Below, piece after piece: positions 7,664-25,558 of a stretch of 64,000 nucleotides of DNA (position 1 is its first letter; every line of letters starts with the position of its first letter). The notes under the pieces were generated by a model. That model did not search any database. It was given only the letters and a program-made list of their open reading frames with translations, and had not been told where the DNA came from. Source of the stretch: Escherichia phage vB_EcoM_CRJP21; sequence record OQ708376.1. The stretch is one strand, 5' to 3'. The position numbers were made by a program, and so were the translations under genes.

Positions 7664-8343
7664 TGAAAAAGAAATTAAATGAACAAGGCTTACGTCCGCA
7701 AGTTCTCAAAGATTTGATTCATCCTATCATTAGTGTTGATGAATATACTCCTAAAATTGAAGATAGTAATATTGTTATTATGTTTCAGGTACTTAACAAT
7801 TTTGATGCAGCATATGATTTATCTTCTTTTATTGAAAAATCACCTATTGATGTAGCTGATACAGAAGCAGCAGAAACACCAAATTTAGATGGTCGATATC
7901 AAGTTTATGTTGAAATGGAACGAAATGCCGAATTCCCTGAAAAACTTTTACGTTTAATTAAAACTATTGAAAATATTTGTCCAGACCCAGGTTGGAAAAT
8001 ACAACTATATGGTGTTAATGACCCAATCGATGTTGATTTTGAAGAAATACAGCAGAGAATTGATTTGGGTATTCCTAGTTCAATTAGTGAGTTCCTTGAT
8101 TATGCTGGTGTTTCAGTAATCAAAGAAGGAAACATGTTGACATTAAAAACAGCATATGGTAAATTACATTACAGTACTGGAAGCGGTTTTGTTTCAGAAA
8201 CATATGTGAAAAAGTTATTAAAGAATGATACACAATTAGACACTTCGCGTCTTAGTTCCATACTAGGGGAAAGCTATACAGTACTACGAAGTGGTGATCA
8301 ATATGTAATTGGAAGAAACGGGAAATATTTGGTGTTGCGATGA
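7663..8343 (+). CDS. Hypothetical protein (226 aa)
   Basis: ORF with start overlapping the upstream stop (TAATG). Confidence 0.55.
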   Translation: MKKKLNEQGLRPQVLKDLIHPIISVDEYTPKIEDSNIVIMFQVLNNFDAAYDLSSFIEKSPIDVADTEAAETPNLDGRYQVYVEMERNAEFPEKLLRLIKTIENICPDPGWKIQLYGVNDPIDVDFEEIQQRIDLGIPSSISEFLDYAGVSVIKEGNMLTLKTAYGKLHYSTGSGFVSETYVKKLLKNDTQLDTSRLSSILGESYTVLRSGDQYVIGRNGKYLVLR

Positions 8344-9158
8344 GAATTTTAAATATGCTTAAATCTCTTCACGAAACAACCAAATTACATCAGGATGAAA
8401 AGTATCGTCGCAGCCTTACTAAAGATTTAGCATGTCGTATGTATATGCGTAGATTTGAAATTTCAAGAATTGGTAAAGGCTGGGATGATGTAAATCGTGA
8501 AGACATTGATCCAGATGCAATTTTTAAAGCATACATGGCTAGAAAAGTTTTCATAAATGAAAAAACTTTTTATATTGATAGTGATAGAGAATTAGAAAAT
8601 AAATTTACAAAAGGTTTATGGAAGATATGGTGTGTTGAAGTATTCGGTGAAGTATTACCTGAGCCACCTGTTCCAGAAACTTATAAAGATTTAAAAAGTA
8701 TTTTTGATAATGAACATATACATTCAAATTTCTCATTATATGATACTGTGTCAGAAGCTGTATTTTATGGTGAGTTACATGGTCATAACAAATACTTTGA
8801 TAGTATGGTTAGTTTTGATTTGTTTTGTCACTTGCCTGGTGTATCAAGTTGGACATGTGACCAACACAGAGCAAGTAAGATTGATAAGCGAAAATTCTCG
8901 GCCCAAAGATTTATGCAAGTTGCTATGAGTATGTATAAACTTGATTATCTTGGTTGTCCAGAACCATATAAACATTTTTGGAAAGAAAGAGCACAAAAAT
9001 GTTTAAACTATTGTATAATCCGTTTAATGGACACATACATTCTTAAGTTTAGAAATGCAACTGTATACGACATGCCTGAACCACCAAAGAATGAAAAATA
9101 TCCACCTGTCAAGACATTTGTATGGTACAAGGATAAAAGTAACAAAAGGATGCACTAA
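8340..9158 (+). CDS. Hypothetical protein (272 aa)
   Basis: ORF overlapping the upstream stop by 4 nt. Confidence 0.55.
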   Translation: MRILNMLKSLHETTKLHQDEKYRRSLTKDLACRMYMRRFEISRIGKGWDDVNREDIDPDAIFKAYMARKVFINEKTFYIDSDRELENKFTKGLWKIWCVEVFGEVLPEPPVPETYKDLKSIFDNEHIHSNFSLYDTVSEAVFYGELHGHNKYFDSMVSFDLFCHLPGVSSWTCDQHRASKIDKRKFSAQRFMQVAMSMYKLDYLGCPEPYKHFWKERAQKCLNYCIIRLMDTYILKFRNATVYDMPEPPKNEKYPPVKTFVWYKDKSNKRMH

Positions 9159-9178
9159 GGTGCGTCCTTTTTTCTTTT
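9148..9178 (+). terminator. Intrinsic terminator
   Basis: GGATGCAC-TAAG-GTGCGTCC hairpin followed by TTTTTTCTTTT. Confidence 0.7.
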
Positions 9179-9184
9179 CAGGTG

Positions 9185-9213
9185 TTGACATGTGTAGTCG
9201 AAGTATGTACAAT
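9185..9213 (+). promoter_or_regulatory. Sigma-70-type early promoter
   Basis: TTGACA, 17 bp spacer, TACAAT. Confidence 0.5.
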
Positions 9214-9254
9214 ATCACCATAGCGTAAATTTTAATTGATTATGAGGTTTTATA

Positions 9255-10382
9255 ATGAAAGGTAAATATTTTTTCATTGAAAATGGCAAAGAAGTTGAGA
9301 TTCAAGAATTTAACTATAATTATGTACTGAACTCTTTATTGAAACAATATGACCGTTCATCAAACAAAAAATACATTTACAATGTAATTGTACGTCGCAC
9401 CTATGACTCGCTGGGTAATCCGTTATTTGATGTAAAAACTCTGTCATTAGATGAAATCTATTTTGATAATAAACGTCTGAAAGTTCTTGATTTAATGAAG
9501 GATAAAATTCATTTTAGTAATATTAGAATTGATCCTAACATGCCAGTACCGCCATTAGAGCGTGAATATCGTGAATGGAAAGAAGGTCGTGCCAAACCAC
9601 GTTTAGACTTGGTACAAACATCACCAGATGTACCTGCACCTATTGTTCTTAAGAAAAAACCTATCAACCCAGACGATAGCAGAATTGATGACATTGAAAG
9701 ATGGGTTGAATTCCCTAGTACTATTGAAAAGAATTCAGTAAAAGTACTAGACTGGTTTGTAAACTTACCAGTTTGTGCACAAGAAATTGGAACTAAGATT
9801 CAACAAATTTCAGAACGTCAATTGGATCTTAACTCAGCATTACAACAGCATAGTGATTATATTAGAATGCTTATGAATAACCTTACTGTTGCGTTGGAGA
9901 CGTTGTTCCCATTGAAGCCGACCTTTACACAGAAATTGTTTGGTAAAACTGATATCAAAGTGCAACCATCAGATTTGCCAAAAGTGATGAAAGCACTAAA
10001 TGAAGCAGTTAAGTATGACACTAATAAGTTTAGTGGTCTTAGTACGATGTTTTCAGAACTTAGAAACGAAGTTAATGAAATCAAAAATGAACTTGAATAT
10101 GGTAAGTTGGGTTGTGAATACGCACTACGTTGTGTGGATGATGCGTTTGAATATGAATTAACATTAGAACGTATTATGAAAATGGGAATCACCACCTCCA
10201 TGACTGAAACGAGCATTATTGCAACAAGTAAGCAATATCAAGTTGATATGAATCGTATGGTAGATATTCAAACTATTACTATTCCTTTGATTATCAATCG
10301 TTTACAATCACAGACAGGTAAAGCTGTGGATGAGAGTACTGTAGAAATTATTCGTAATCTGGCATATGGTAACAAAGAGTAA
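9255..10382 (+). CDS. Hypothetical protein (375 aa)
   Basis: Long ORF; no recognised motif. Confidence 0.6.
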   Translation: MKGKYFFIENGKEVEIQEFNYNYVLNSLLKQYDRSSNKKYIYNVIVRRTYDSLGNPLFDVKTLSLDEIYFDNKRLKVLDLMKDKIHFSNIRIDPNMPVPPLEREYREWKEGRAKPRLDLVQTSPDVPAPIVLKKKPINPDDSRIDDIERWVEFPSTIEKNSVKVLDWFVNLPVCAQEIGTKIQQISERQLDLNSALQQHSDYIRMLMNNLTVALETLFPLKPTFTQKLFGKTDIKVQPSDLPKVMKALNEAVKYDTNKFSGLSTMFSELRNEVNEIKNELEYGKLGCEYALRCVDDAFEYELTLERIMKMGITTSMTETSIIATSKQYQVDMNRMVDIQTITIPLIINRLQSQTGKAVDESTVEIIRNLAYGNKE

Positions 10383-10468: not shown

Positions 10469-11605
10469 ATGTCCGAGAAAGAAATCAATCCTAAAAAAGC
10501 ATCCACCGCAGCTAAATCAGCAAAACGCACTACTAAAACTGCGTCTAAAGGTCATACAATTGATGCAAGTGATATTTTTAACCAAACTACAAAATCACTA
10601 CCAGTACTGAAAGATGTTAAGGGAAATACTATGTCTCTAACAGTTCAAAACATCAATACTGTTGGTACAACTGCTGGTGCTGCTGTTGGGCGTTTGGCTG
10701 ATGAAATTATGTCTAAAGTTAATGTAACGGATGACAATACCGAGTTTGGTAAATCAATCACCACAATTCTTACGTTGACTCGTGCAGTTGATATTGACAG
10801 TCTTCAAGAAGATAAATCAATTGTTGGTCGTATTAAGAAATTCTTTGTTAATGCTCAACAGAAAGTAGGTGATCAGTACAAAAACAGTAAAGAGCAAATT
10901 GACGAAATTATGAAAACTCTTCAAACTGGTATTAATCGCCAGCACGGAGAATGTGAATGGCTTGATAAAGCATATAATGAAAACAAAGAATATTTGTTTG
11001 AATTACGTGATACATTAGTTGGTTTAGAAGAAGTAACTAAAACACAAGATGCATTATTATTAGAAATGCAAGCAGACAAAAATGTAGACTCTTTTGCTAT
11101 TCAAGAGCAAAAGATGATTTGTGAAGCACTTTCTAAACAAGAAGATAAGATTCGTCGTCTTATCATGATGTGCGAGCTAAGTGGTCCACGTTTGATGAGT
11201 ATGAAAAAAGTAAACTTGAACACTGTTTCTAAGTTTGAAGATTTAAAATCTGTTGTTATTCCAGCATGGAAGTCTCAATTGGCTGAACAGTTAATTTCCG
11301 AGCGTCAACGTAAGGATAATGAACTAGGCAATCTAATTGATAATGAGACAAACCGTCTTTTGGAAACTAACTCTAAAATGGTTGCAGCAAATATGTTGGA
11401 CGCAGCAAAGGCAAACAACCGTGGTATTGTGGATATTAAAACCTTGCGTAATGTACATAAAACGATGATTGACAGTATTGAAGCAGTTATTGAAGAAGAG
11501 AAAAAAGGCAAATTGGAACGTGAACGTGCTAAACAGGAAATTGCACAACTTTCCTATGAACTGGAAGACACTCTTCGTGAAATTGCCGAAAAAGCTAACA
11601 AGTAA
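10469..11605 (+). CDS. Hypothetical coiled-coil protein (378 aa) with Lys/Ala/Thr-rich N-terminus
   Basis: ORF with RBS AACGAGGAA; low-complexity N-terminal region; no family assigned. Confidence 0.6.
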   Translation: MSEKEINPKKASTAAKSAKRTTKTASKGHTIDASDIFNQTTKSLPVLKDVKGNTMSLTVQNINTVGTTAGAAVGRLADEIMSKVNVTDDNTEFGKSITTILTLTRAVDIDSLQEDKSIVGRIKKFFVNAQQKVGDQYKNSKEQIDEIMKTLQTGINRQHGECEWLDKAYNENKEYLFELRDTLVGLEEVTKTQDALLLEMQADKNVDSFAIQEQKMICEALSKQEDKIRRLIMMCELSGPRLMSMKKVNLNTVSKFEDLKSVVIPAWKSQLAEQLISERQRKDNELGNLIDNETNRLLETNSKMVAANMLDAAKANNRGIVDIKTLRNVHKTMIDSIEAVIEEEKKGKLERERAKQEIAQLSYELEDTLREIAEKANK

Positions 11606-11660: not shown

Positions 11661-11684
11661 AATGTACAGATAAGGAACTAACTT

Positions 11685-12374
11685 ATGAAACGTCGTCATA
11701 TTAGTGTTGATATTGAAGCTCTTGGAACACCTGAACTTTCCGGTTATGATATTATTATCCCAAATTACGCAGCAGTAGTAGTTCCAAGTAAACCTGAAAA
11801 TGACATTCGTCAGTTCTTATATATTAAATTACCATACCAGGATCAAGTTGCTACTGGTTTAAAATCAGACGCAGGTGCAATGGATTTTTGGATGAATACA
11901 TGTCAGAAAGAATACCCTAATGCATATTATGAAGTTGCCAGTACTATGAAACTCAAAGCACCTGAACTGTATGGACCGAATGGTCAATCACGACGATTTT
12001 TTGCATACAGTAGTATTGTTGATTTCTGGAAAGAATTACGTTACAATGATTATGGTGAAGAAGTTCCTCATTCAGTATGGGGCAACGGATGTAACTTCGA
12101 TTGTAGTATTTTACAAGCAAACCATTTAAAACTAATGAACGCTGGTGAGTTGTGGAAGTATGATGCACCTGAAAATGCACGCACATTGAAACGTTTATTG
12201 AATGAAGAAGCTCGTATTGAAATGGATGAAATCGTTTCGGTACAGTTGGATAAATTTATCACATATGCAAATACGTGTGGGATTAATGGGTTGGAGTTAC
12301 ATCACCCACTGTTTGATGCAGCACGTGAAGCAATCCAGATTTCATTCTGTCTAAACAAGCTTAAAATGGATTAA
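11685..12374 (+). CDS. dexA: DnaQ-like 3'-5' exonuclease (T4 DexA-like)
   Basis: 229 aa; N-terminal ISVDIEALGT (Exo I DxE motif) and C-terminal HHPLFDAAREAI (Exo III-like H..D); size and motifs resemble T4 exonuclease A as I recall it. Confidence 0.55.
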   Translation: MKRRHISVDIEALGTPELSGYDIIIPNYAAVVVPSKPENDIRQFLYIKLPYQDQVATGLKSDAGAMDFWMNTCQKEYPNAYYEVASTMKLKAPELYGPNGQSRRFFAYSSIVDFWKELRYNDYGEEVPHSVWGNGCNFDCSILQANHLKLMNAGELWKYDAPENARTLKRLLNEEARIEMDEIVSVQLDKFITYANTCGINGLELHHPLFDAAREAIQISFCLNKLKMD

Positions 12375-12377
12375 TAC

Positions 12378-13472
12378 ATGAATTTCATTATTCTGTTAAT
12401 ACCTGCTCTTATCGTTGTATTCGTTATGAAATACATGTACGATAAGCATATCAGTACTAAAGAACTATTGATTCATATTGCTTGTTGTCTGGTTGGTGCG
12501 GCTCTTGTTCTTGGTATTTCATACGCAATCAACTATAGCCAGCTTTATGATGTTGAGATTCTGAATGGTCAAGTAACTTCAAAATACAGCCACAAAGAAT
12601 ATTGCACACAATCTAGTTCATGTAAGCACTATACATGGCATGAGAAGTGCCATACGCGATATGATAGTAAAGGTAAATCACATCGTGAGTGTGAATCATA
12701 TAAGGTTTTTGATTACTCATATGAAGTTGATTGGTATGTGAAAAGTACAGTAGGTGAGTTTGAGATTGAACGTGTGAACCGTCAAGGTACAATGACACCA
12801 CCACGTTGGCAGCAAGTTATTATTGGTGACTATGCCGCAGCAGAGAGTTCATATATCAACTATCTATTTGCTGATAAGAACTCATTGTTTAGTCCTGAAG
12901 AACTACACAACATGTATGATGAAAAGTATCTTAGTACTATTCCAGAATACCCAAGTGTAGTTGATTATTACAAAACACATCACGTAATTAACACTACAAA
13001 TTACAACGTTGATGGTTACGATGAATACCTTCGTAATGAGCTAAAAACGATGGGTGCACGAAAGCAGGTAAACATCCAAGTACTAGTTTATGATTACAAA
13101 GATGTTGATTTTGTTGATGCTACCCTTGCATCGTGGCGTGGTGGTAAGAAGAATGATGTTATTATGTTCTTTGGTATTGACAATGATGGTAACGTTGTAA
13201 AATTTTACAGTACATCATTTGCACAAGGAATGAAGAATGAAGAGTTACATGCAAAGATGCGTATTGATGCATTAAATGAAAAATTAACTCTTGACTTACT
13301 AGTTAAAGAAGTACATAATATTGACAAACATTTTGAGAGACTCTCTAATAAAGAGTTTGAGTACTTGTCAGTAAAAATGGAACCTAGAAAAGATGTTCTT
13401 ATCGGTGCTTCCATTGTGTTGTTGATTCTGTCTATTTTCATTGGCCTTTATATGAGGGATAACGATTTATGA
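12378..13472 (+). CDS. Membrane protein (364 aa) with Cys/His-rich soluble domain
   Basis: Hydrophobic helices at the N-terminus (IILLIPALIVVFV, CCLVGAALVLGISYAI) and C-terminus (VLIGASIVLLILSIFIGLYM); cluster CTQSSSCKHYTWHEKCH. Confidence 0.55.
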   Translation: MNFIILLIPALIVVFVMKYMYDKHISTKELLIHIACCLVGAALVLGISYAINYSQLYDVEILNGQVTSKYSHKEYCTQSSSCKHYTWHEKCHTRYDSKGKSHRECESYKVFDYSYEVDWYVKSTVGEFEIERVNRQGTMTPPRWQQVIIGDYAAAESSYINYLFADKNSLFSPEELHNMYDEKYLSTIPEYPSVVDYYKTHHVINTTNYNVDGYDEYLRNELKTMGARKQVNIQVLVYDYKDVDFVDATLASWRGGKKNDVIMFFGIDNDGNVVKFYSTSFAQGMKNEELHAKMRIDALNEKLTLDLLVKEVHNIDKHFERLSNKEFEYLSVKMEPRKDVLIGASIVLLILSIFIGLYMRDNDL

Positions 13473-14023
13473 ATGGTAAACTCCTTGCGTTAATTGGTAT
13501 TTTGGTAGTTATCGTACTAATGGTGTTTGGTTCTATTAGTATGTATGTTGGTGCACATGATCGTGCAGTTGAGTTTGAAGGAAACATTAAAAAGTACTAT
13601 GATGCATCAGAAAGTCAACTTAGCAATTATACTCTTACTATTCAAGATAAGGTTCAAGTAGCCGATAAGTATAAAGATGCGTTGAAAGAAACGATTGAAT
13701 CATACTTTAAAGGGCGTGAAGGTGTTGACCAGAAGTTTGTAATGTCACAGATTCAACAACAGGTTCCAAATCTTGATCCTAAAATTTATCAGGAATTGAT
13801 GGTGACAATTGAAACAGGACGTACAAAGTTCAACAATCTTCAGAAAATGAAAATTGACCAGTGTACTGATTATGCTAAGTTCCGCAAAGGCTTCTGGAAT
13901 TCCAAAATTCTTGATTCGAATACGTTTCCAAGTGAAAATATTGAACACCTTTGTACAGTAGTATCTGATACGCGTACCAAGAAAGCAATGGATACTGGTA
14001 TTCAAGAATCAATTAAACTATAA
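13469..14023 (+). CDS. Membrane-anchored protein (184 aa)
   Basis: N-terminal TM helix LLALIGILVVIVLMVFGSISMYV followed by a soluble domain; start overlaps the upstream stop. Confidence 0.55.
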   Translation: MNGKLLALIGILVVIVLMVFGSISMYVGAHDRAVEFEGNIKKYYDASESQLSNYTLTIQDKVQVADKYKDALKETIESYFKGREGVDQKFVMSQIQQQVPNLDPKIYQELMVTIETGRTKFNNLQKMKIDQCTDYAKFRKGFWNSKILDSNTFPSENIEHLCTVVSDTRTKKAMDTGIQESIKL

Positions 14024-14032
14024 TTAAATGTT

Positions 14033-14058
14033 GGGAGTACTTTGTACTCCCCTTTTCT
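14033..14058 (+). terminator. Intrinsic terminator
   Basis: GGGAGTAC-TTT-GTACTCCC hairpin followed by CTTTTCTAT. Confidence 0.65.
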
Positions 14059-15226: not shown

Positions 15227-15580
15227 ATGCTAATTTATTTAAGTGTTATTGTAATTTCATTACTGGTATCATTCGCTGTTCTTAAAATTGTTGCTATTTG
15301 TAGAAGTAAGATTGATAGTTCTGAAACTAGATCAGTACTTGACTTGATTATGGACCATCCTAAAATCTGTGGTATTATTGTATTATTCGTTGTACTGATT
15401 AATACATATATTGTCAGGGAACATTTATATAATATGTATGATTGTAGTGTGCGTTCTATTTCACAAGGTGTTGAAACAGACTATAGTTGGTACTATGAGA
15501 AATGTCGATTTAAAAACCAGCATGGTATTTGGGTTGATTTTGATAAACTACGTGGAACACCTTCAGGAGAAGAAGAATAA
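15227..15580 (+). CDS. Small membrane protein (117 aa)
   Basis: Two hydrophobic segments (LIYLSVIVISLLVSFAVL, ICGIIVLFVVLINTYIV). Confidence 0.5.
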   Translation: MLIYLSVIVISLLVSFAVLKIVAICRSKIDSSETRSVLDLIMDHPKICGIIVLFVVLINTYIVREHLYNMYDCSVRSISQGVETDYSWYYEKCRFKNQHGIWVDFDKLRGTPSGEEE

Positions 15581-15582
15581 TT

Positions 15583-16074
15583 ATGTTTGAATTCCCAGAA
15601 GAGTCATTTAACTTCATTGACCCTACTGATGATGGATACCGACATATTAACATTTATAGTAAAGCCAGAACGAAGTTAGGTAGAGATCTATCTAACTTTT
15701 CTTCGCATAGCTTCACACTTGAACCATATGGTTGGTTCCCTTCAGTTGAAACATTTTACTTTTGGTTTTTAACTGGGCAAAAACATGATGACCTTATAAA
15801 AGTATCTGGTGCAGCAGCAAAAGCAGCCGCTAACAAATATATGCATGATCGAATTGAAATGACGGATGATTGTATTTCTATTATTCAAGATGCTATTTGT
15901 GCTAAGATAATTCAAAATCCAGAGTTAGCCGAAAGATTAAGAAAAAGCAAGTTGCCTTTTTACCATTACTATGTATATGGTGGTAAAGTTGTAGATGTAT
16001 CCGACGAACATGATTGGTTTGTTAAAACATTCGAATATATAAGAACTGTGTTAAAGGAAAACTATGATGGGTAA
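15583..16074 (+). CDS. NADAR-domain (YbiA/DUF1768-like) protein
   Basis: INIYSKARTKLGRDLSNFS ... PSVETFYFWF and PELAERLRKS ... YVYGG segments resemble the NADAR pattern seen in E. coli YbiA (INFYS ... FSNF ... SEHYFQ ... ELRALL ... WGDGG). Confidence 0.55.
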   Translation: MFEFPEESFNFIDPTDDGYRHINIYSKARTKLGRDLSNFSSHSFTLEPYGWFPSVETFYFWFLTGQKHDDLIKVSGAAAKAAANKYMHDRIEMTDDCISIIQDAICAKIIQNPELAERLRKSKLPFYHYYVYGGKVVDVSDEHDWFVKTFEYIRTVLKENYDG

Positions 16075-17664: not shown

Positions 17665-18093
17665 ATGAATATCGAACAAACTATCCGTGAACATTCTTTC
17701 TTCGCTCCAGAAACTGGTCGTGTTATTGAGAGCGTCAAAATCGAAGAACTAATGGTCAATGTTAAATACAAAGAACCAAATGATGAGATTAGCAGTACTT
17801 TTTGTGCTCTACGTGCACCATTCCGTAATGAAAAAGCTAAGAAACCAGCATATGTTCTTGCCATTGCACTGGGTTGTGTTGTAAAACTTGCAGTTGATGA
17901 AAATCTTCTGAATATTAAAGTTGCACCAAGCAATGACGATGAAAACATTGATTTGAACTTTGATGGTTCTCTTGATGAAGATGTATTTTTCCAACAGTCA
18001 CTTGTTTACGACTTCCGTACAGTGACACATTCTCACATCAAGTTCATTAATGAAATGGTTGAGATTGTTGCTGAATACGAAGAATCTCTCTAA
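17665..18093 (+). CDS. FFQxS-motif paralog family member
   Basis: Motif instance DEDVFFQQSLVYD near the C-terminus; RBS AAGGAA. Confidence 0.6.
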   Translation: MNIEQTIREHSFFAPETGRVIESVKIEELMVNVKYKEPNDEISSTFCALRAPFRNEKAKKPAYVLAIALGCVVKLAVDENLLNIKVAPSNDDENIDLNFDGSLDEDVFFQQSLVYDFRTVTHSHIKFINEMVEIVAEYEESL

Positions 18094-18103
18094 GTAAATA
18101 CAA

Positions 18104-18128
18104 AAGCCTCCATTATGGAGGCTTTTAT
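18104..18128 (+). terminator. Intrinsic terminator
   Basis: AGCCTCC-ATTAT-GGAGGCT hairpin followed by TTTTAT. Confidence 0.5.
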
Positions 18129-18146: not shown

Positions 18147-18698
18147 ATGATAGACCAAATTAAAATCCTTACAAAGCAAATCACTGATTTTCTTTCTGAT
18201 AAAGATGGATTTAATACAGAAGTAAAAATGCACGGTGTTAGTGTTGATGTAATTGCACCAAATGGTAATGTAACAAGTTACGACATGTATGAATTACTTC
18301 TTTATACTCTAGCAGTACGTAAACTAGGTAGTGATATTGAACTCAATATCAATACTGATGAAAGTGGGAATAAAATTTTTGCAATCAACACCAGTGCTAA
18401 ATTCGATATCAGTACTGAAATTAAAAAAATAAATGAAAGTTTTATTGGCTTTAAGCATGAATCAATTCAAAGTGTTTTTATTGGAAAGCAAACTTCTAAT
18501 AGTGAATGCCCATATTGTGTAATGACTTTATATAAAGATGGAAACTGGATGCGTCAAGATTTAGTATTTGCTGAACTTCTGTATGCATTTACACATGAAC
18601 TTAAAATCGAATTGGACGATAGTGTTTATTGCTTTAAGAAAATTCGAAATATAACTAAAGATATACAAACCCAACTTAAAGAATTAAATGATAAATAA
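18147..18698 (+). CDS. Hypothetical protein (183 aa)
   Basis: ORF with RBS AAGGAAA. Confidence 0.55.
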   Translation: MIDQIKILTKQITDFLSDKDGFNTEVKMHGVSVDVIAPNGNVTSYDMYELLLYTLAVRKLGSDIELNINTDESGNKIFAINTSAKFDISTEIKKINESFIGFKHESIQSVFIGKQTSNSECPYCVMTLYKDGNWMRQDLVFAELLYAFTHELKIELDDSVYCFKKIRNITKDIQTQLKELNDK

Positions 18699-18814
18699 AT
18701 ATACCAGAAATGGTTAACATATCATGTTACTTTCCTCCCTTACATAATAATGATGCGTTATTATATTTTCATTTTGTTCTTATTCCCCTTTTGGTACAAA
18801 ATCATTTTAGTACT

Positions 18815-18840
18815 GCCCCGATCTTCGGGGCATTTTTCTT
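18815..18840 (+). terminator. Intrinsic terminator
   Basis: GCCCCGA-TCT-TCGGGGC hairpin followed by ATTTTTCTT. Confidence 0.6.
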
Positions 18841-25226: not shown

Positions 25227-25370
25227 ATGCCAGTACGTAACAGTACTTCACGCTTTACGCTTCAACAGAAAGCAGATCTTTTGAATATGGCTAACAAAGA
25301 TTCTAATTTTTACTATCTAGTACTCGGTGGGTCAGTAGAAAAGATTGACCTACGTGAGTGTATGAAATAA
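25227..25370 (+). CDS. Small hypothetical protein (47 aa)
   Basis: RBS AAGGAG then ATG 25227; not in the ORF track (below length cut-off). Confidence 0.4.
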   Translation: MPVRNSTSRFTLQQKADLLNMANKDSNFYYLVLGGSVEKIDLRECMK

Positions 25371-25387
25371 CAAAAAGGGGACTAAAA

Positions 25388-25558
25388 ATGAGTCTACGTG
25401 AATCATGGGAACAATTTAAAGAAGAGATTGGTTATCGTGGTGTTAAGATTGAAAAAATCAATCGAACCGAAAGCATCAAAGCCAGTACTAATGGCACTAC
25501 CTATGATCGTTATGATGAAAAGTATGGTTTGCATTCTAAACCGAAGGATACTGAATAA
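25388..25558 (+). CDS. Small hypothetical protein (56 aa)
   Basis: Track 25358..25558; start moved to ATG 25388 behind AAGGGGA. Confidence 0.4.
   Translation: MSLRESWEQFKEEIGYRGVKIEKINRTESIKASTNGTTYDRYDEKYGLHSKPKDTE

Follow-up and report, generated by a model that had tools for sequence, protein, structure and literature searches.

Escherichia phage vB_EcoM_CRJP21 (sequence record OQ708376.1) carries, at positions 15583-16074 of the 64,000-nucleotide stretch analysed here (the window), a small gene whose 163-residue product belongs, judging from its sequence, to a distinct clade of the NADAR superfamily. This clade lies nearest to the phage NADARs of the His-type (T4 gp30.3/AdfN), beyond both Pfam models, PF08719 (NADAR) and PF08010 (Phage_30_3). 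NADAR fold and homology, derived from sequence profiles and a predicted structure, are established as far as computation goes. As for function, we tentatively favour an ADP-ribose-base N-glycohydrolase whose target would be nucleic acid of the phage, with DarT1-type adducts foremost. The window is Asteriusvirus-type jumbo coliphage DNA with 99.8% identity to phages JP4, phAPEC6 and SP27 over 4 kb and 98% to 121Q in the same comparison. The protein is identical to WIL00943.1 of vB_EcoM_CRJP21, deposited as ‘hypothetical protein’, a label found in all 23 Asteriusvirus records and in all database names that we met. The open reading frame (ORF) is intact in 23 of 23 Asteriusvirus records at a nucleotide identity of 88-99.8%. 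A preliminary description of the window had placed this ORF, which runs on the + strand from ATG through 163 codons to TAA, at the same coordinates and had quoted the motifs LSNFS (residues 36-40), PSVETFYFWF (53-62), ELAERL (114-119) and YVYGG (130-134), all of which are present. The gene and its main segments are listed below, with conservation figures that refer, here and throughout, to 176 diverged family sequences.

15583..16074, + strand: coding sequence of the single-domain, divergent NADAR-superfamily protein, 163 codons plus stop, with ATG start and TAA stop
15631..15663, + strand: N-terminal clade signature D17-G18-x-x-H21-I-N23-x-Y25-S26-K27, from conservation and the YbiA alignment
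15688..15699, + strand: L36-S37-N38-F39, the NADAR hallmark ‘SNF’ motif (N38 98%, F39 95% conserved)
15742..15750, + strand: S54-V55-E56, with E56 aligned to the ribose-coordinating Glu in four independent alignments
15769..15771, + strand: L63, at the site of the canonical Lys seven residues after this Glu (Glu+7), without a gap between E56 and L63 in the four alignments
15796..15798, + strand: codon ATA for I72, the private substitution R72I (AGA, Arg, in JP4)
15820..15834, + strand: K80-A-A-A-N84, counterpart of K75...G78-R79 in the Phytophthora NADAR (PnNADAR), from the HMMER alignment to 8bau
15964..15972, + strand: H128-Y129-Y130, start of the C-terminal beta-hairpin (H128 98%, Y129 and Y130 97% conserved)

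Searches with the single sequence did not place the protein in a characterised family. The Pfam scan returned zero families at E <= 10, hence neither PF08719 nor PF08010 (gathering scores 35.1 and 36, respectively), NCBIfam and PADLOC gave no match, and neither did phmmer against the PDB. PADLOC was also blind to the positive control T4 AdfN, hence its null result is uninformative either way. Among the PHROGs, the protein falls in phrog_652 and phrog_11222, both of ‘unknown function’. A profile built from 27 homologs (alignment A1) and searched against 177,635 distinct PDB sequences found exactly two matches, both of them NADARs, namely PnNADAR (8bau_A, E = 1.2e-4) and E. coli YbiA (2b3w_A, E = 5.6e-4). 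Profile-profile comparison of A1 with a YbiA-family alignment gave 94.1% probability over 135 columns. Larger hhalign alignments (176 family sequences, 108 gp30.3 relatives, 95 YbiA relatives) yielded 98.1% (E = 8e-14) for the T4 gp30.3/AdfN family across 130 columns, i.e. the whole domain, and 96.0% for the YbiA family, with 97.6% for gp30.3 versus YbiA as positive control. The gp30.3 relatives were taken from a protein database, as a scan of viral contigs with T4 gp30.3 had given near-identical T4-like copies only. Reciprocally, two hidden Markov models (HMMs), one built from YbiA relatives only and one from gp30.3 relatives only, were run over all 378 ORFs of the window, and in both cases this ORF came out on top (E = 0.002).

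The predicted structure points in the same direction. An AlphaFold2 model based on A1 (mean predicted local distance difference test score 90.8, predicted template modelling score 0.84) combines short strands at the N terminus with helices and a hairpin at the C terminus (strands 129-132 and 135-138). Foldseek matched this model to three NADAR structures with probabilities of 1.0, 1.0 and 0.99 and template modelling scores of 0.52-0.61, while the next match reached 0.03; two fold comparison programs agreed that only NADAR structures match. In a library of viral structures, family members ranked first, followed by annotated giant-virus NADAR proteins. Since the PDB profile search, profile-profile comparison, reciprocal HMM ranking and fold comparison agree, the resemblance to NADAR goes beyond chance. 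The NADAR (YbiA) assignment of the preliminary description is therefore upheld, and LSNF and S-x-E fall on the hallmark motifs in every alignment; the profile match itself was obtained by profile-profile comparison of the HHpred type (94-96% for YbiA, 98% for gp30.3) and not by plain Pfam hmmscan.

Roughly 25 positions are conserved at 90% or above, among them the polar residues E56, H21, N23, K80, K108 and H128. The full N-terminal block of the clade reads D17-G18-x-x-H21-I-N23-x-Y25-S26-K27-G-x-T30-x-L-G33-R34, with very high conservation of D17 (97%), G18 (99%), H21 (97%), N23 (100%), Y25 (95%) and S26 (98%). The I-N-x-Y-S portion aligns with I17-N-F-Y-S21 of YbiA and is the sole part in common with that protein, whereas D17, G18 and H21 are peculiar to the clade. 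LSNF is aligned to FSNF in YbiA, FLSNF in PnNADAR (8bau) and ALSNF in T4 gp30.3. E56, K80 and H128 are strictly conserved and, together with polar residues peculiar to the clade, make up a strongly conserved set that resembles an active site. E56 is invariant (176/176) and corresponds to E43 of PnNADAR, E88 of the E. coli C7 protein and E36 of T4 AdfN, a Glu that coordinates the distal ribose (Schuller et al. 2023, PMC11543638; Johannesman et al., PMC11257639). K80 (99%) aligns with PnNADAR K75, which shields the pyrophosphate (PMC11543638). The catalytic residue of the last strand differs between NADAR types, being Glu in YbiA, Asp in the BC4488/DarG1-type and His in the gp30.3-type (PMC11543638, PMC11125620). 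In the hhalign alignment of the family with gp30.3, LPFYHYY pairs with avLkHSI, which equates H128 with T4 H123; the alignment of A1 with YbiA puts the H128 region in a different register, and the equivalence of H128 and H123 in three dimensions is presumptive.

The clade is large and phage-dominated. An exhaustive profile search recovered 2,087 clusters (50% identity) at E <= 1e-3, 641 of these at E <= 1e-30, and tblastn located the protein in 501 phage records, among them those of jumbo phages of Escherichia, Klebsiella, Cronobacter and Erwinia, Ackermannviridae such as CBA120 (orf012), and many Vibrio phages. A pattern-limited scan of 185,579 bacterial and archaeal species, with one genome per species, uncovered 11 loci only, where the gene layout looks prophage- or phage-like. 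Standalone proteins account for 101 of the 176 clade sequences and multidomain proteins for 75 (~43%). A Pfam census of 148 clade representatives identified DUF4326 (25), YAcAr SLOG (18), Macro (6), DUF488-N3a (5) and a separate canonical NADAR domain (2) as fused partners, besides YpsA, weak DprA-like matches, and single cases of Metallophos and 3'-5' exo(ribo)nucleases including Rv2179c-like ones. The clade domain itself never matched PF08719 among these 148 relatives, and five matched PF08010, all below the gathering score.

Gene neighbourhoods of relatives add to this picture. Prophage-like loci in bacteria or metagenome-assembled genomes (MAGs) include the following:

L019, 6481-6861
L022, 6460-6954
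L020, 5399-5956
L024, 5464-5997

DUF488-N3a is encoded by a separate gene directly downstream in two of eight bacterial/MAG loci (and is also fused in the relative P0024), and a P-loop gene of the AAA_28 family lies directly upstream in another two of the eight. A gene for a Thg1-like 3'-5' polymerase precedes the clade member of L019. On a 117-kb metagenomic phage contig (L006), the clade member (8001-8435) is convergent with a gene for a 392-residue ADPrib_exo_Tox/ADP-ribosyltransferase protein (8500-9678) at a distance of 65 bp, with DNA ligase and DenV nearby. The layout recalls that of T4, in which a few genes separate 30.3 from alt and ligase. Another member (L010) resides in a block with 2H phosphoesterase, Metallophos, phosphoribosyltransferase and RNA ligase, and a further one (L009) near DNA ligase, Rv2179c-like exonuclease, HNH and PIF1. 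The partners of the relatives all belong to NAD/ADP-ribose or nucleic-acid-end metabolism. Genes for 2H, Metallophos, DUF488-N3a, AAA_28, Thg1 and the fused-domain partners of the relatives were searched for in the window, and none was found.

We infer catalytic activity, a nucleic-acid adduct as substrate and a role in counter-defence. The product would act in the cytoplasm as a small NADAR-superfamily enzyme, from the clade nearest to T4 gp30.3/AdfN, that cleaves the N-glycosidic bond by which ADP-ribose is joined to a nucleobase and might clear phage nucleic acid of the ADP-ribose that ADP-ribosyltransferase toxins of the host attach. The leading candidate adduct is the guanine-N2 ADP-ribosylation that DarT1 places on single-stranded DNA, after whose removal replication could proceed. 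All NADARs assayed so far hydrolyse guanine-ADP-ribose in DNA or RNA (PMC11125620, PMC11833690), and T4 AdfN as well as two unrelated phage NADARs shield phages from DarTG1 (PMC11257639; HIDEN-SEQ preprint). In favour of such a role, relatives adjoin genes for DNA ligase, exonuclease, 2H, RNA ligase and Thg1, and once for an ADP-ribosyltransferase, and some are fused to exonucleases or to Macro, the fold of the anti-DarT2 enzymes. The preliminary description had proposed a counter-defence enzyme on the grounds that NADARs reverse DNA ADP-ribosylation by DarT-type toxins. This holds for the guanine-N2 marks of DarT1 and does not extend to the thymidine marks of DarT2 (PMC11543638, PMC11125620), so that the relevant system is DarTG1 and not DarT2-DarG; DarG1 is itself a NADAR, while the antitoxin of DarT2 is the macrodomain protein DarG (PMC11543638, PMC11125620). 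By analogy with the assayed phage enzymes, an anti-DarT1 role of the window protein is plausible.

Packaging into the virion was considered in view of the virion-protein genes that flank the locus and was rejected for phAPEC6, since the 62 proteins that mass spectrometry detected in its virions do not include the ortholog gp139c (PMC7247149). Given its absence from this proteome, the protein is probably made after infection rather than injected.

Several observations speak against an N-glycohydrolase of DarT1-type adducts. One is the lack of the Glu+7 Lys across the entire clade, in which the column is led by Ser (43), Leu (40) and Gly (40 of 176) without a basic majority. The assignment of L63 to this site is robust, with four alignments free of gaps in this helix. 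This residue corresponds to K50 in PnNADAR, K95 in E. coli C7 and K43 in T4 AdfN (PMC11543638, PMC11257639), proved essential in two mutational studies (C7 NADAR K95A and T4 AdfN K43A; PMC11543638, PMC11257639), is needed for hydrolysis and was reported as largely conserved over the superfamily (PMC11543638). With this Lys lacking, the sequences imply that the clade must hold the ADP-ribose diphosphate in a way unlike that of the characterised NADARs. The helix after E56 is also altered, as the polar Q-x-x-K face of canonical NADARs gives way to an aromatic G-Y-W-Y-W-L in the clade and T-F-Y-F-W-F in the window protein. Further, Ala, Asn and Ile replace G78, R79 and W89 of PnNADAR, the pyrophosphate and adenine contacts (PMC11543638, which also lists R93 among the residues surrounding the pyrophosphate), in the window protein and its Asteriusvirus relatives. 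Position 83 (G78) is Gly in 93% of the clade compared to A83 here, position 84 (R79) is Arg or Lys in 72% compared to N84, and at position 91 (W89) Trp is the commonest residue (49/171) compared to I91. The Asteriusvirus subclade segment accordingly reads K-A-A-A-N-K-Y-M-H-D-R-I versus the clade consensus K-k-l-G-R-x-L-x-x-x-D-W. In addition, the CRJP21 copy has Ile at position 72, which is Arg or Lys in 98% of the clade (148 Arg and 24 Lys of 176). The protein is acidic, with an isoelectric point (pI) of 5.65 compared to 9.0 for T4 AdfN and 9.4 for YbiA. No DarT-like, ADP-ribosyltransferase-like or other ADP-ribose-related gene was found in the 64-kb window. The multidomain share of ~43% counts against this function as well, since DUF4326, YAcAr/YpsA SLOG and Macro partners were read by Iyer et al. 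(PMC7824862) as a pathway of soluble ADP-ribose derivatives. Finally, we found no assay of any clade member in the literature; tests of phage NADARs have so far concerned T4 AdfN and the proteins of Bas32 and Bas60 (PMC11257639, PMC11125620, HIDEN-SEQ preprint).

Some of these points fit another possibility, nearly as likely as the favoured one, namely that the same fold and N-glycosidase chemistry serve to quench a signal instead of repairing DNA. The substrate would then be a soluble, ADP-ribose-derived immune molecule of the host, for example toxic ADP-ribose-1''-phosphate or one of the cyclic ADP-ribose variants that TIR/Thoeris-type systems make. Degradation of soluble signals is the published prediction for the ortholog group (Iyer et al. 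2021, PMC7824862). It agrees with the fusion census (DUF4326, at least 18 YAcAr/YpsA SLOG, Macro, DUF488-N3a and Metallophos), with the DUF488-N3a and AAA_28 genes at two bacterial/MAG loci each, and with the acidic character of the protein. The loss of the Lys, and an aromatic Y-W-Y-W face where canonical NADARs have the polar Q-x-x-K, hint that the ligand is a different one, and the remodelled pyrophosphate loop likewise favours a soluble substrate. On the other hand, the NADARs assayed so far all act on base-linked ADP-ribose and none is known to use a soluble immune signal as substrate, Macro and SLOG/DprA-like partners suit nucleic-acid targets equally well, and the window protein is standalone without such neighbours.

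More doubtful is a broader proposal, that the Lys-less His-type clade forms a functionally distinct NADAR branch whose substrate is perhaps other than DarT1-type guanine-ADP-ribose. Such a substrate could be a cyclic or histidine-linked ADP-ribose signal or another base adduct. If true, jumbo phages, Ackermannviridae and metagenomic viruses would share a widespread, uncharacterised class of anti-defence enzymes comprising ~2,000 clusters.

A function in RNA damage and repair seems unlikely, in which the enzyme would take ADP-ribose off toxin-modified RNA bases or clear by-products of NAD-dependent RNA-end healing. NADARs do hydrolyse guanosine-ADP-ribose in RNA (PMC11833690) and a link between NADAR and RNA repair has been proposed in the literature. 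Such a function would match the L010 block with its RNA ligase, 2H phosphoesterase, Metallophos and phosphoribosyltransferase genes, the Thg1-like neighbour in L019 and the members fused to an Rv2179c-like 3'-5' exoribonuclease. These contexts are sporadic, however, with one or two loci each, and the window yielded no RNA-repair gene.

The substitution at position 72 raises the question of a weakened enzyme. Position 72 aligns with the invariant R66 of YbiA, and it is Arg in JP4, 121Q, the relatives P0001 and P0002-P0010 and all other close relatives examined. The JP4 ORF differs from that of the window by one nucleotide, with R72I as the sole protein difference, and no phage record is 100% identical. 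The substitution is not an artefact of the window, as WIL00943.1 carries it too, and R72I may be a hypomorphic allele. A weakened or non-catalytic NADAR fold, acting as an ADP-ribose sponge or persisting as a relic at least in CRJP21, is nevertheless quite unlikely. The missing Glu+7 Lys, the loop with A83, N84 and I91 for G, R and W, and the private change at a 98% basic position would fit this explanation. They are opposed by the ~25 positions conserved at 90% or above over ~2,000 clusters, a pattern typical of an active site, by the intact ORF in all 23 Asteriusvirus records and by fusion partners that are enzymes.

Highly unlikely, in our opinion, is a housekeeping role as a YbiA-like damage-control N-glycosidase, e.g. 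for intermediates of the riboflavin pathway, or the reversal of marks set by an ADP-ribosyltransferase of the phage itself. The L006 homolog convergent to an ADPrib_exo_Tox gene and the proximity of T4 30.3 to alt would be in line with it, but adjacency to an ADP-ribosyltransferase was met once and no such gene is present in the window, the last-strand Glu that defines YbiA is not conserved, and the clade is almost confined to phages, with 11 prophage-like loci in 185,579 species genomes. That the protein is no NADAR and its motifs arose by chance is extremely improbable, because the missing single-sequence matches in PF08719, PF08010, NCBIfam and PADLOC are countered by four independent lines (PDB profile, profile-profile, reciprocal HMM, two-program fold comparison), and PADLOC misses the T4 AdfN control as well.

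The identification as NADAR is correct but already known. Iyer et al. 2021 (Viruses 13:63, PMC7824862) named QAY00367.1 as a jumbo-phage NADAR example and predicted degradation of soluble ADP-ribose signals or toxins; this 163-residue protein (P0417 in our set) is ~93% identical to the window protein and falls in the same 90% cluster, hence the identification is not new. The fusion architectures observed here match the DUF4326/SLOG/Macro/NADAR fusions of Iyer et al. 2022 (Viruses 14:1977). In both papers the assignment is computational and the substrates are predicted to be soluble ADP-ribose derivatives; the accessible portions of the two texts do not discuss the loss of the Lys, the His of the gp30.3 type or the remodelled loop in Asteriusvirus. 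PMC7824862 also cites QAY00582.1 as a jumbo-phage SIR2 protein, in the same accession series as QAY00367.1, and a single phage genome is the probable source of both, in which case Asteriusviruses would carry further NAD-utilising genes outside the window.

Annotation as a NADAR-superfamily protein is still useful where records state ‘hypothetical’. The clade raises the question of whether a NADAR without the ‘essential’ Lys can remove ADP-ribose from guanine, and of whether it counters DarTG1, a different ADP-ribosyltransferase toxin or soluble ADP-ribose signals. A function assigned to it would apply to a gene that hundreds of sequenced phages carry, some of them candidates for therapy against E. 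coli O157, Salmonella and Klebsiella.

The genomic surroundings are compact. The stop codon of the upstream gene (15578-15580) ends 2 nt ahead of the NADAR-like ATG, and the ATG of the downstream gene at 16064 creates an overlap of 11 nt with the 3' end, which places the NADAR-like gene in a tightly packed, co-directional block of small genes. GC-rich, terminator-like hairpins are present at 14033-14051, 3' of a virion-protein gene (13469-14023), at 18100-18128, 3' of ORF 17665-18093, and at 18814-18832, 3' of ORF 18147-18698. The first and the last of these may bound the transcription unit of the NADAR-like gene. A promoter scan gave 52 sites versus 42 +/- 7.6 in shuffled sequence, no excess over chance. 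Ten ORFs around the gene had no informative Pfam or PHROG match, and neither a NADAR paralog nor a canonical NADAR was found elsewhere in the 64-kb window. A weak match of the YbiA profile to the 66-residue ORF 25358-25555 on the + strand (E = 0.008 among the 378 ORFs) was judged to be chance and rejected as a second NADAR; it covers a helical stretch of 38 residues that lacks any NADAR motif.

Two upstream genes deserve mention. ORF 11682-12371 (+ strand), annotated as ‘exonuclease’ in JP4, lies 3.2 kb upstream of the NADAR-like gene. It shows weak similarity (E = 5e-4) to the N-terminal domain of the fusion protein P0156, which joins an exonuclease domain to a NADAR-like domain of this clade. 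This sequence similarity hints at a possible Rosetta-stone link between the two genes. A TelA-like gene (~10469-11605; ‘tellurite resistance’ in the JP4 annotation) lies a few kb upstream, as it does in a 50%-identical metagenomic relative (L008, 3704-4822). With the same arrangement in this relative, the synteny of TelA-like and NADAR-like genes is kept beyond Asteriusvirus.

Among known systems, YbiA (2B3W) and Phytophthora NADAR (8BAU), both of PF08719, share I-N-x-Y-S, SNF and S-x-E with the window protein and A-[KR]-x-x-G-R at the clade level, and its helix ‘ELAERL’ aligns with ‘ELRALL’ in this comparison. Identity is as low as 15-17%, the C-terminal hairpin of the clade has no conserved Glu to match the YbiA-defining last-strand Glu (E125), and R79 and W89 of PnNADAR are Asn and Ile in the window protein. 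The DarG1-type NADARs (BC4488 family; E. coli C7, Geobacter lovleyi, PDB 8BAT) adjoin DarT1 and possess an N-terminal extension, D171 and K95. The window protein, in contrast, has neither an adjoining DarT1 in the window nor the extension, carries His instead of Asp and has no counterpart of K95.

Phage-encoded NADARs outside the T4 group, like the window protein, are NADAR(Bas32) and NADAR(Bas60), which stem from T5-like and rV5-like coliphages and counter DarTG1 (Johannesman et al. 2025, PMC11257639). DELTA-BLAST against conserved-domain models brought them to light, and they are said to group with archaeal and bacterial NADARs (PMC11257639). A scan of the whole rV5 genome with three HMMs, made in order to place the Bas60 protein relative to our clade, revealed no NADAR of any clade. 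In rV5, gp204 (L032, 31671-32129) is a homolog of T4 tk.4, recently named AdfM, a macrodomain anti-DarTG2 factor.

The closest parallel is T4 gp30.3/AdfN (PF08010), likewise a standalone phage NADAR fold of ~150-160 residues encoded among small non-structural genes. The gp30.3 type occurs in myoviruses, and the window too stems from a myovirus-type jumbo phage. It is the best profile-profile match, and LSNF, the Glu (E56 = E36) and presumably the His at the hairpin start (H128 = H123) are common to both. The clade differs by its own N-terminal D-G-x-x-H-I-N-x-Y-S-K-G-x-T-x-L-G-R block and its aromatic G-Y-W-Y-W-L helix, and the window protein has L63 where AdfN has K43, which is essential in vivo. 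While gp30.3 homologs are standalone, 43% of the clade is multidomain, and anti-DarTG1 activity, demonstrated for AdfN, is at most predicted for the clade. Because a counterpart of K43 and a match to PF08010 are both lacking, we do not file the window protein as a member of the AdfN family; its sequence places it in what appears to be the nearest neighbouring clade.

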